A stretch of 64,000 nt of DNA from Syntrophales bacterium (GTDB lineage Bacteria; Desulfobacterota; Syntrophia; Syntrophales; UBA2210), in NCBI GenBank assembly GCA_963666365.2, contig CAXXNF010000001.1:992001-1056000 (forward strand), in the 5' to 3' direction. Position numbers and translations under genes: made by a program. Below the pieces are notes generated by a model, which did no database searches, was not told where the DNA came from, and saw nothing but the letters and a program-made list of their open reading frames with translations. Below, one piece after another: positions 34,132 to 63,741 of the stretch (position 1 is its first letter; each line of letters begins with the position of its first letter).

Positions 34132-34277
34132 TTCTCGAAATGTCGCCTCGGACGGGTACGTCCCGGGGGTGAAGGAAAGGGGGTGAGCGGGGAAACAGCC
34201 AATCAGCAGACAGGTATATCGGTTCAAAAAATCAAAGGTTTAAAACAGACAATATCTTTTTTTAGGAGGAAAGATAG

Positions 34278-62057: not shown

Positions 62058-63104
62058 TCAATGATGTGGAGTAAATGCTGCAGCCTTCATTCGGATCCGG
62101 CGATACATCGCCTGAAGACAACGGTCCGACATGACCGTCACGGTAGTATAAAAGAGGATCTTTTTTACCTCCCGCCGGCTTATTTTTATCGTGCGACCGC
62201 ACAGAAGAGATTTCTTCTCTTCGGAAAGCCTCGCCAATGTCTCTAGGGCCATAAAGAGCGGCCATAGACAGAAGAGACGGTATCGCACCTGCGATCTCGG
62301 AATATCGAGGGTGTACAAGAGCGCTTCGTCAAGATTTTCAAGGGCCAGGGAGATAAGCCTCCTGAAGACGCCCAACGAAGCCTGTTGATTACACTGTAAC
62401 AAATGCACGTCGGGGGCAATGCCTTCAGACTCAAAAAACGACCGGGGCACATAACACCACCCCCTCCCGAAGTCTGAAAAGAAATCCTTTGCAATATTAG
62501 TAATTTGTAATCCCGTCCCAAAGGCAACGCTTCGGGAGTACAAACGTTCCCTTAGCTCTGACGGCATGGACGGCGCCCCTTCAGCGAAAAGCGAAGTAAT
62601 CATCACGCCCACCGTACCCGCAACATAATAGCAGTAGCGCTCCAGCTCCTCCCGGTTATCAAGACAGATCATCCCGCTGCGGGACCGCTTTTTCTGGAAC
62701 TCGGCCATGCCCAGAGCCATTTCCCGGACATGCTGCGATATGATGGAAATATACGCGGGGGGCAACTTGACAAACTCCGATACTACGCAGTCAATATCCC
62801 CGACGAGGCGTACATCAAAACTCTCCCGGCTGAAGGCAAGCTCGTCAGTAAAATGTGCCGTGCGACTGCGCCAATCGGACGAGGGGGGAAAGAGCGACGC
62901 ATAAAGAGAAAGATAGCCAATTTTCTGCCCGAACGAGAAAGAGGGATCATCTTCAAGGGTATCGGCAATGCGGCACAGTAGGTACGCCAGAAGAAGTCCC
63001 CGATACACGTCCCCTCCGAGCACCCGTATATTCAGGGCAAAAGTTCTGGAAACCTTCGTCAAATGATCCTCACAGATCCTGAAATCGTTCCCGCTCGCCG
63101 CCAT
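62058..63104 (-). CDS. Squalene/phytoene synthase family protein
   Basis: VSRTFA, CRIADTLEDD, YCYYVAGTVG, LQITNIAKD, FCLWP..MA.ETL. Confidence 0.85.
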   Translation of the reverse strand: MAASGNDFRICEDHLTKVSRTFALNIRVLGGDVYRGLLLAYLLCRIADTLEDDPSFSFGQKIGYLSLYASLFPPSSDWRSRTAHFTDELAFSRESFDVRLVGDIDCVVSEFVKLPPAYISIISQHVREMALGMAEFQKKRSRSGMICLDNREELERYCYYVAGTVGVMITSLFAEGAPSMPSELRERLYSRSVAFGTGLQITNIAKDFFSDFGRGWCYVPRSFFESEGIAPDVHLLQCNQQASLGVFRRLISLALENLDEALLYTLDIPRSQVRYRLFCLWPLFMALETLARLSEEKKSLLCGRTIKISRREVKKILFYTTVTVMSDRCLQAMYRRIRMKAAAFTPHH

Positions 63105-63142
63105 AATCCTCGCCCGAAATGTCCTCCCTTTTAGTCTGGGAC

Positions 63143-63172
63143 ACTGTAAAAAAAATACCTCCTCAATGTCAA
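63143..63172 (-). promoter_or_regulatory. sigma70 promoter of the squalene synthase gene
   Basis: TTGACA-18 bp-TACAGT on minus strand. Confidence 0.6.
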
Positions 63173-63209: not shown

Positions 63210-63239
63210 AAAAAAAGGGAGACCCTGAGGCCTCCCTTT
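63210..63239 (-). terminator. Intrinsic terminator of the candidate sRNA
   Basis: Minus strand AAAGGGAGGCC-TCAG-GGTCTCCCTTTTTTT. Confidence 0.8.
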
Positions 63240-63424
63240 GCAAAGGGAATGTACCAACCAATGTTTTTATAACCCGTGCCGCAATCTAAAGAATAACTCT
63301 AAGAACTTACATCCAAAAACAACCCTCGCCTCGCAATTCCACTTCATGTACAATTCAAGGGCTCTCAAAAATCGGTCGGTTCAAAGGTTTAAACCAGAAA
63401 ATTAGGAGGTATTTTCCAGTTCGC
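63210..63424 (-). ncRNA. Candidate sigma54-dependent structured small RNA
   Basis: Bounded by a -24/-12 promoter and an intrinsic terminator; stems with strand-specific G-U pairs; ACCUCCU in 5' loop. Confidence 0.6.
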
Positions 63425-63434
63425 CCTTTTGTAA

Positions 63435-63450
63435 AGCATGGACCGTGCCA
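63435..63450 (-). promoter_or_regulatory. sigma54 -24/-12 promoter
   Basis: Minus strand TGGCACGGTCCATGCT; GG at 63449-48, GC at 63437-36. Confidence 0.7.
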
Positions 63451-63741
63451 GAGGAGTGCATTGATGTTCAACACATTGAAATATCTTTCAAATGCATTGT
63501 CTACCCCCCTTCAAGAAGACGTCGGGACAGAGGAACAAAATGTCGAATTATTTCTCCGCCTCATATTTTTTGAATTAAAAACAGGTAGATGCCTATTCGA
63601 CATCTTTTCGTCGATTCGACAAAATTGTCGAATTGCCTCCGTGGAAAGGGAGCATCCCCTTTTTAATCGCTTGTGTTCGACTACGGATTAGTATATGTAG
63701 GGAAAATAAAACAATAAACCAAAGAATTTAAGGCAGATAGC

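Follow-up and report, generated by a model that had tools for sequence, protein, structure and literature searches.

A conserved family of putative sigma-54-dependent small RNAs with predicted complementarity to a porin leader in the order Syntrophales

The locus, its predicted transcript and their relatives

We analysed a 64,000-nucleotide stretch of DNA, referred to here as the window, from a Syntrophales bacterium (GenBank assembly GCA_963666365.2, contig CAXXNF010000001.1, positions 992,001 to 1,056,000 of the forward strand), and specifically a putative small RNA (sRNA) that lies near its end on the minus strand, between a squalene/phytoene-synthase-like gene and a divergently oriented gene for a ZraP/Spy-like periplasmic protein. 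The comparative evidence presented below suggests that this RNA belongs to a conserved family and pairs with the translation start of a porin mRNA encoded in the same window. An earlier interpretation made from the letters of the window, the original prediction, had placed here a sigma-54 promoter at 63450-63435, a transcription start at about 63424 and a terminator ending at about 63210, and we find all these elements at these positions (table 1). It had also described a 5' hairpin exposing the motif ACCUCCU. The 16S rRNA gene within the window ends in ...GGAUCACCUCCUUUCU, and the hairpin loop thus repeats seven bases (ACCUCCU) of the anti-Shine-Dalgarno (anti-SD) tail, as had been proposed. 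The third claimed structural element, a long-range stem pairing 63383-63371 with 63262-63250, stands in part: the stem itself is present in the minimum-free-energy (MFE) fold and is conserved, but its proposed inward extension (AGCCC/GGGUU) is not, as the AGCCC segment pairs locally in the MFE fold and the extension is not conserved outside the genus.

Table 1. Features of the sRNA locus and of its predicted target in the window. SD, Shine-Dalgarno; UTR, untranslated region.
Feature	Position	Strand	Remarks
Sigma-54 (-24/-12) promoter TGGCACGGTCCATGCT	63435..63450	-	differs from the 16-nt sigma-54 consensus at 1 position
Predicted sRNA transcript, about 215 nt	63210..63424	-	start from promoter geometry, end from terminator
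5' hairpin	63392..63421	-	11 pairs (2 G-U), 8-nt loop
Hairpin loop ACCUCCUA	63403..63410	-	contains CCUCCU
Anti-SD motif CCUCCUAA	63402..63409	-	complementary to porin SD
Seed CUGGUUUAAACCUUUGA	63381..63397	-	end of hairpin 3' arm, single-stranded linker and first bases of long stem
Long-range stem, 5' strand	63371..63383	-	pairs with 63250..63262; in MFE fold
Long-range stem, 3' strand	63250..63262	-	pairs with 63371..63383; in MFE fold
Intrinsic terminator	63210..63239	-	11-bp GC-rich stem (63214-63239), tetraloop, U7 ending at 63210
Upstream activator site 1, perfect palindrome TCGACA-N4-TGTCGA	63616..63631	.	181 bp upstream of -24
Second, imperfect palindrome TCGAC-N8-GTCGA	63597..63614	.	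adjoins site 1; in G000, partly in G016 and G022
Upstream site 2, half-site-like TCGACA-T-rich-TTCC	63532..63546	-	about 95 bp upstream of promoter
ZraP/Spy-like periplasmic protein gene, 148 aa	63742..64000	+	start of divergent operon; runs past window end
Outer-membrane beta-barrel porin gene, 445 aa	34278..35615	+	predicted target; signal peptide
Porin 5' UTR box UCAAAGGUUUAAAACAG	34232..34248	+	complementary to sRNA seed; 30-46 nt upstream of ATG
Porin SD region UUAGGAGG	34262..34269	+	complementary to sRNA loop

The promoter match taken alone is not rare, since the sigma-54 consensus with at most one mismatch occurs four times in the window against 1.83 expected, and 11 of 100 shuffled sequences did equally well. 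Because the features of the single locus are not compelling when taken alone, the case for an RNA that did not arise by chance rests on the comparison with relatives. A DNA search of 41 related genomes returned partial matches in eight, all sharing one layout: a sigma-54 promoter, a hairpin with a CCUCCU loop, a conserved stretch following the hairpin, and a terminator. A covariance model covering the promoter and the 5' module (R1) matched 30 of the 38 genomes of the bacterial family, representing nine of its ten genera. A second model (R2), built from 30 sequences derived with R1 and run over 151 genomes of the order, found the RNA in all 11 sampled genomes of the same family (f1) and in six of ten from the sister family f6, and in none of 129 genomes belonging to 22 other families of the order. 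The GG and TGC of the promoter are invariant in two seven-sequence alignments (A1 and A2), and every row of a 30-row alignment (A3) keeps GC-A at -24 and TGC at -12 except L051, which reads TGACA (GA at -24).

Across the 30 aligned sequences, 85.3% of the cells in the hairpin are paired as compared with 28-58% in slid controls, seven of its 11 pairs show changes on both sides, and its covariation score exceeds that of every one of 500 shuffles; the alignment was fitted to the covariance model, which favours structure somewhat. The loop reads CCUCCU in 27 of these members, UCUCCU in two and CCUCCA in one. The most conserved stretch after the loop is a linker, GGYUUAAACCY, located just 3' of the hairpin. 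Homologues of the long form (12 members, 191-230 nt) carry GC-rich terminators at the same position, and their hairpin and long-range stem together are 89.5% paired (89% for the stem alone); five pairs of the stem vary on one side (G-U/A-U/G-C) and one pair varies on both. The interior between the two strands of the long stem is the most variable part of the alignment. Short forms found in two genera (g9 and g10) lack this variable region and have a second hairpin, the loop of which is again (C)ACCUCCU(G), and an extra CCUCC motif occurs single-stranded before the terminator in genera g2, g3, g7 and g8. The claim of an unannotated, strand-specific regulatory RNA is thus supported at the sequence level by conservation of structure and by covariation.

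The Rfam scan that had been named as a check gave no family: with Rfam 15, the families of which include atoC (RF01733), Qrr, GlmY/GlmZ, alpha-r14 and Pxr, nothing in the window reached the gathering score, the best hit for the region at E up to 10 was STnc100 (18.8 bits where 47 would be needed, covering only the terminator), and 12 diverse members gave no match at E up to 1. A literature search, in whose coverage subscription journals were not included, found no published description of such a family. The predicted RNA is thus a member of a conserved family that is new to Rfam 15.

Additional, sibling ('type B') sRNAs, encoded elsewhere in many genomes, occur at L027, L028, L038, L049-L054, L109, L110, L114, L115 and L118, and at L043-L048 in family f6. 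They share the palindrome, the promoter, the CCUCC motif and the linker. What sets them apart is a different stem of the hairpin, the presence of a second hairpin and a terminator of the CCCGGGAAG type; within about 1.5 kb, none of the 14 such loci of the family has a gene for a kinase, an activator or a porin. As for other promoter-like sequences in the window, a perfect match to the 16-nt sigma-54 consensus (TGGCAC-N5-TTGCA) is located at 10082-10097 on the plus strand, and a sigma-70-like promoter (63143-63172, minus strand; TTGACA, 18 nt, TACAGT, 10 of 12 positions) lies between the sRNA terminator and the PF00494 gene at 62058-63106. A similar TTGACA is seen in G001, a genome of the same genus.

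Predicted pairing with a porin leader

Two things were overlooked in the original prediction: the most conserved functional part of the RNA is the linker after the hairpin, and the target gene that we predict is located in the same window. When the family genomes were searched for the complement of the linker followed by GGAG, six of the seven non-self matches examined, from several genera, preceded genes for secreted proteins of about 415-445 amino acids (porins), and the seventh preceded another secreted protein. In the genome containing the window (G000), the box in the 5' UTR of the porin gene forms 13 contiguous pairs with positions 63397-63381 of the sRNA, followed by one mismatch and three more pairs, and the porin SD forms 7-8 bp with the loop; an energy of -30.6 to -32.6 kcal/mol is predicted for the duplex. 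When the 6,837 SD-bearing starts of open reading frames (ORFs) of at least 100 codons in G000 are ranked, that of the porin comes first, with -32.6 kcal/mol against a mean of -15.7 and a standard deviation of 3.7. Target prediction, which had been suggested as a check, thus yields a specific partner, and the idea that an anti-SD motif displayed in a loop may act on ribosome-binding sites gains a conserved predicted counterpart in the porin SD. The ranking is based on start regions, as scanning sites containing GGAG or the linker complement with the whole 62-nt segment produced inflated and uninformative energies.

The pairing is not restricted to G000. We read 26 porin start regions (the leaders of genus g2 and of G010, G018 and G020 are outside this set) and found a canonical box in 15, a variant box in seven and none in four. 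For 25 porin start regions from 23 genomes, each paired with the sRNA of its own genome and compared with 100 shuffles, 24 pairings were equalled or beaten by no more than five shuffles (z-scores from -2.1 to -7.7), and 18 beat all 100. The porin also pairs better than the rpsB start region of the same genome, which has a strong SD, in 18 of 19 comparisons. Linker and box alike deviate from the canonical sequence in genera g1 and g4, and complementarity is kept there, partly through G-U pairs. When the linker was considered alone, none of the 20-21 boxes from other genera matched the cognate box in the case of G000, G001, G016 and G019, and one of 20 did so in the case of G012. In the sister family f6, two porin start regions are about 20/22 identical to the antisense of their own sRNA, in a run that begins in the linker, takes in the hairpin arm and reaches CCUCC.

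The putative target protein has only a sub-threshold relationship to the NCBIfam model NF033939 (DESULF_POR1, 'outer membrane homotrimeric porin'), with 58.8 bits and E 4e-16 against a cut-off of 250; a second type of porin scores 100.3 bits (E 1e-28), also below that cut-off. An AlphaFold2 model based on 18 homologues (predicted local distance difference test 76.6, predicted template modelling score 0.74) is a large beta-barrel, predicted to have 18 strands, and the nearest solved structures retrieved by Foldseek are AlgE (E 1.4e-16, template modelling score about 0.6) and the Campylobacter MOMP (E 7e-14). The nearest sequence clusters of the porin come from Thermodesulfobacteriota, and homologous genes are present in 28 of the 38 family genomes. 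Several genomes have porin genes of two subtypes arranged back to back (L126/L166 in G007, L122/L164 in G003 and L132/L160 in G046), and in G007 the box is found at both start regions.

Some further observations concern the leaders themselves. The MFE structure of the porin leader places the SD inside a local 10-bp hairpin (34253-34277, plus strand) formed with an upstream U-run and with bases reaching to the start codon, a possible intrinsic brake on translation. A G-rich element resembling GGGGGUGAU is also conserved in porin leaders, where it precedes the start by 60-90 nt (34160-34200 on the plus strand of the window; L152-L181), and rpsB leaders (L055-L084) contain GGUGGAGG followed by an A-rich run. 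Each of the two looks like an extended SD with complementarity to the tail of the 16S rRNA, and might serve as a standby site or offer the additional CCUCC motifs of the sRNAs a second place to pair. We considered rpsB as a target as well, since its leader in G000 (contig C2, about 1143240-1143300, minus strand, L061) has a 10-nt complement of the linker by the SD. It is missing from the other 29 rpsB leaders of the family, and we thus take it as a chance match, as we do a second 14-nt perfect complement that lies in a coding region just outside the window.

The divergent two-component system

The ZraP/Spy-like protein matches the Pfam family PF13801 (Metal_resist) with 32.8 bits at a cut-off of 29.2, and matches ZraP weakly. 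Beyond the end of the window, its gene is followed by one for a membrane histidine kinase (HisKA and HATPase_c domains) and then by one for an activator (REC, Sigma54_activat and HTH_8). The best NCBIfam models for the latter two are those of AtoC/AtoS and ZraR/ZraS, all below their cut-offs: the ZraPSR equivalog scores are 450 bits against 760 for ZraR, 196 against 479 for ZraS and 30.6 against 200 for ZraP, and AtoC and AtoS score higher than ZraR and ZraS, still without reaching their cut-offs. An orthologue of the kinase lies divergently upstream of the RNA at 26 of the 30 family loci, the exceptions being one truncated locus and three loci of sibling RNAs, and the same arrangement including a ZraP-like gene is seen at three of the six loci in family f6. 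The ZraP-like gene itself accompanies only five of the 30 family loci and is missing from most genera.

The region between this operon and the sRNA promoter contains the upstream elements listed in table 1. The palindrome lies 168-192 bp upstream of the promoter at 28 of 30 family loci and the half-site-like element 81-103 bp upstream at 23 of 30; both also precede sibling RNAs that have no kinase nearby. This palindrome alone among the exact copies in G000 has an A/T spacer, and it alone lies 50-320 bp upstream of one of the 344 sigma-54-like sites. A pattern consisting of the palindrome, 150-180 nt and a sigma-54 promoter had 37 matches in 31 of the 38 family genomes, and the reversed control had none. 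The hairpin-plus-linker module directly follows the promoter at each of the 30 pattern loci returned (in two of them the first loop carries a UCUCC or UUCCC-type motif, not CCUCC), and at none of the 30 does the start of a protein gene stand behind the site and the promoter. An rpoN gene is present in G000. The proposed enhancer control by sigma-54 is thus consistent with the activator gene, the conserved upstream sites and the rpoN gene.

Given the conserved upstream sites, the adjoining system, the pattern loci that all appear to drive RNAs and the presence of rpoN, we read the RNA as the main output: together with its sibling where there is one, it is probably the main and possibly the only direct target of the two-component system. 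The operon of the ZraP-like protein, the kinase and the activator has a sigma-70-like promoter of its own (63597-63625, plus strand), the -35 element of which is the TCGACA of the palindrome, and binding of the activator could therefore autoregulate the operon.

Interpretation and comparison with known regulators

Taken together, the data are best explained, with a probability that we put at roughly 0.7, by a trans-acting sRNA of about 215 nt that is driven by a two-component system and sigma-54, represses a porin and probably acts independently of Hfq. The elements, their conservation, covariation and complementarity come from sequence analysis, and it is from these that we infer transcription, the signal and the direction of the effect. 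The system would consist of a membrane histidine kinase and an NtrC/AtoC/ZraR-type sigma-54 activator, joined in some genera by the ZraP-like periplasmic protein, a partner from which we guess that the signal sensed by the kinase may be envelope or metal stress. The phosphorylated activator would bind the palindrome about 180 bp and the half-site about 95 bp upstream and open the sigma-54 promoter. The resulting RNA would present two accessible elements, the CCUCCU hairpin loop and the linker just 3' of it, on a scaffold made of a variable domain closed by the long-range stem and of the terminator. Loop and linker would then pair, in the mRNA of the major outer-membrane porin, with the SD and with the box about 20 nt upstream of it (34232-34269 in the window), the ribosome-binding site would be occluded, and less porin would be made, probably without Hfq. 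Repression is much likelier than activation, as it is the SD itself that would be covered. No Hfq (PF17209) was detected in the 94% complete genome G000, so that the long bipartite duplex may not need a chaperone.

Several points weigh against this interpretation. Sequencing runs containing the locus number four (from two studies), none of them recorded as RNA, and the ends of the transcript are predicted ones. The fold of the whole RNA is only moderately stable relative to chance (-64.5 kcal/mol, z -1.86), with 6 of 200 shuffles equally stable. The nature of the signal is a guess, because the kinase, the activator and the ZraP-like protein all score below the equivalog cut-offs of AtoSC and ZraPSR. 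A plus-strand scan of the intergenic region revealed no sigma-54-like site before the ZraP-like gene. Hfq is judged absent on the basis of a single Pfam model, in a genome with a completeness of 94%. With respect to the target, the four start regions lacking a clear box are those of G042, G046 and the second copies in G017 and G006, and pairing of the type-1 porin of G042 is no better than that of shuffles. Covariation between box and linker rests on a few lineages, because within the canonical group cognate and non-cognate partners pair equally well, and in G052 (L035, L176) linker and box have both changed at the same pair, giving a C.C mismatch. Perfect complements of 13-14 nt to the first 62 nt of the RNA also arise elsewhere by chance, with 18 matches of 13-nt words, one of them within a coding sequence.

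The alternative that we take most seriously accepts a real, sigma-54-driven RNA and denies that the porin is its main or physiological target, or that it is repressed; the RNA would then be a general anti-SD RNA, a regulator of another mRNA, a sponge or a decoy. A CCUCCU loop can indeed pair with any strong SD (rpsB starts give -19.6 to -24.6 kcal/mol), many family members have a second or third CCUCC motif, and the MFE fold places the porin SD in a local hairpin. Generic SD binding, however, assigns no role to the invariant linker, which matches a conserved box specific to porin leaders, and it does not predict that the porin start comes first genome-wide in duplex energy, that box and linker co-vary by lineage, or that f6 shows a nearly contiguous complementarity over 22 nt. 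We thus regard this alternative as unlikely. A very improbable explanation of the same match is that box and linker are two copies of a double-stranded DNA site for a transcription factor. Both are short, conserved and partly palindromic, with a self-complementary core (UUUAAA), as such sites may be; but the box lies inside the 5' UTR near the SD and the linker inside the transcribed RNA, and the complementarity goes on into the pairing of SD and loop, in f6 through the hairpin arm. This explanation fails because of that contiguous f6 complementarity and because g4 and G012 keep the match by G-U pairs, which are not equivalent at the DNA level.

Two further alternatives concern the RNA rather than its partner. 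Its position upstream of, and on the same strand as, the squalene/phytoene-synthase-like gene (62058-63106), together with a terminator like those ending attenuators, might suggest a cis-acting leader of that gene. We consider this slightly less probable still than the DNA-site explanation, because the downstream gene differs between genera (squalene-synthase-like, FabK/NPD-like, or unrelated at sibling loci) and in G000 has its own sigma-70-like promoter after the terminator, and the partner that is conserved is the divergent kinase upstream. The least probable reading is that of an mRNA for a small ORF of 26-33 codons (63368-63267, minus strand). Such an ORF exists in G000 and a partly similar one in G001 of the same genus (...WN-E/S-ARV-F...), but it has no convincing SD, as the original prediction had observed; four of the 12 long forms have no ORF of at least 15 codons, the peptides of the others are unrelated between genera, and the ORF region is the most variable in the alignment and is missing from the short forms. 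With nothing comparable outside the genus, we reject the small ORF as the function of the RNA and retain the trans-acting regulator of porin synthesis as the preferred interpretation.

The general design has parallels in other bacteria. Like Qrr1-5 with LuxO in Vibrio and GlmY with GlrK/GlrR (= QseE/QseF) in Enterobacteriaceae, the RNA described here combines a sigma-54 promoter with upstream activator sites, its gene stands beside its own kinase/activator pair, and it or its siblings, which exist as additional copies in some genomes, would form the main output of the system (PMC3045617, PMC6075780, PMC10162802). It is unlike Qrr and GlmY in having no relation to them in sequence or in Rfam, and in its phylum, its predicted porin target, its pairing by an anti-SD loop plus linker, and a genome in which Hfq was not found. 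Dependence on Hfq is typical of the enterobacterial sRNAs that repress outer-membrane proteins (OMPs). MicA and RybB (controlled by sigma-E), MicF, MicC and OmrAB (EnvZ-OmpR) and VrrA are such OMP-repressing sRNAs, induced under stress to pair with start regions of mRNAs for abundant OMPs and stop synthesis (PMC1804206). Our RNA resembles the MicA/RybB/MicF type in its pairing with the translation start of an OMP mRNA, predicted here in silico, and differs from it in the putative control by sigma-54 and an enhancer-binding response regulator, in the bipartite interaction with an anti-SD hairpin loop, in lacking homology and in its probable independence of Hfq.

C-rich or CCUCC motifs, often multiple, in loops or single strands that pair with the SD are a feature of the alpha-r14 ('cuckoo') family (NfeR1, CcsR1-4), of RoxS/RsaE and of RNAIII. 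The RNA described here is not homologous to any of these and differs in that the linker would provide the specificity and the promoter is predicted to depend on sigma-54. NfeR1 (alpha-r14/'cuckoo' family) is linked to NtrBC (PMC10746234). The atoC RNA motif (Rfam RF01733) of Weinberg et al. (2010) is described as a small structured RNA of 'delta-proteobacteria' located beside genes for atoC-type sigma-54 activators, about 90 nt long, classed as cis-regulatory, and carrying CCCUCCU in the terminator hairpin loop of several Geobacter and Pelobacter members (PMC2864571). In that motif, the anti-SD sequence is in the terminator loop and a 5' hairpin or a linker is absent, unlike the situation in our RNA, and cmscan found no match between RF01733 and our RNA or 12 of its relatives at E up to 1-10. 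In Desulfovibrio vulgaris, which belongs to the same broad lineage, the mapped target of the sigma-54-dependent response regulator DVU0679 is the adjacent Dv_sRNA2, of unknown function (PMC3333781). The likeness to our RNA is one of description, and Dv_sRNA2 differs in lying downstream of the regulator gene and in having no known target.

The neighbouring genes are of the same three types as E. coli ZraPSR, namely a ZraP/Spy-like protein, a sensor kinase and a sigma-54 response regulator. The E. coli zraP-zraSR organisation features a divergent sigma-54 promoter. The difference is that the divergent sigma-54 target would here be an sRNA and not the zraP-like gene, which is present at just five of the 30 loci.

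What appears to be new is the RNA family and the combination of sigma-54 enhancer control with predicted repression of a porin by a bipartite anti-SD interaction, a combination that we have not found described. The proposed scheme brings two textbook themes to a new phylum, that of sigma-54 systems with an sRNA output and that of stress-induced sRNAs stopping OMP synthesis, and illustrates how a second short element can lend specificity to an anti-SD loop, which on its own is unspecific. The co-variation of box and linker provides a ready-made design for compensatory mutations. A complete and testable circuit, leading from a sensor kinase through a sigma-54 activator and an sRNA to a porin mRNA, thus emerges from comparative genomics alone, in a lineage that is known mostly from metagenome-assembled genomes and about whose RNA regulation almost nothing is known. 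We would go further only tentatively, at somewhat less than even odds, and suggest that the two-component system has no protein-coding regulon, that its only outputs are one or two sibling sigma-54-dependent sRNAs serving as a dedicated off-switch for porins by means of the bipartite loop and linker in a lineage without Hfq, and that this undescribed RNA family and its circuit may set outer-membrane permeability in the largely uncultured Thermodesulfobacteriota.

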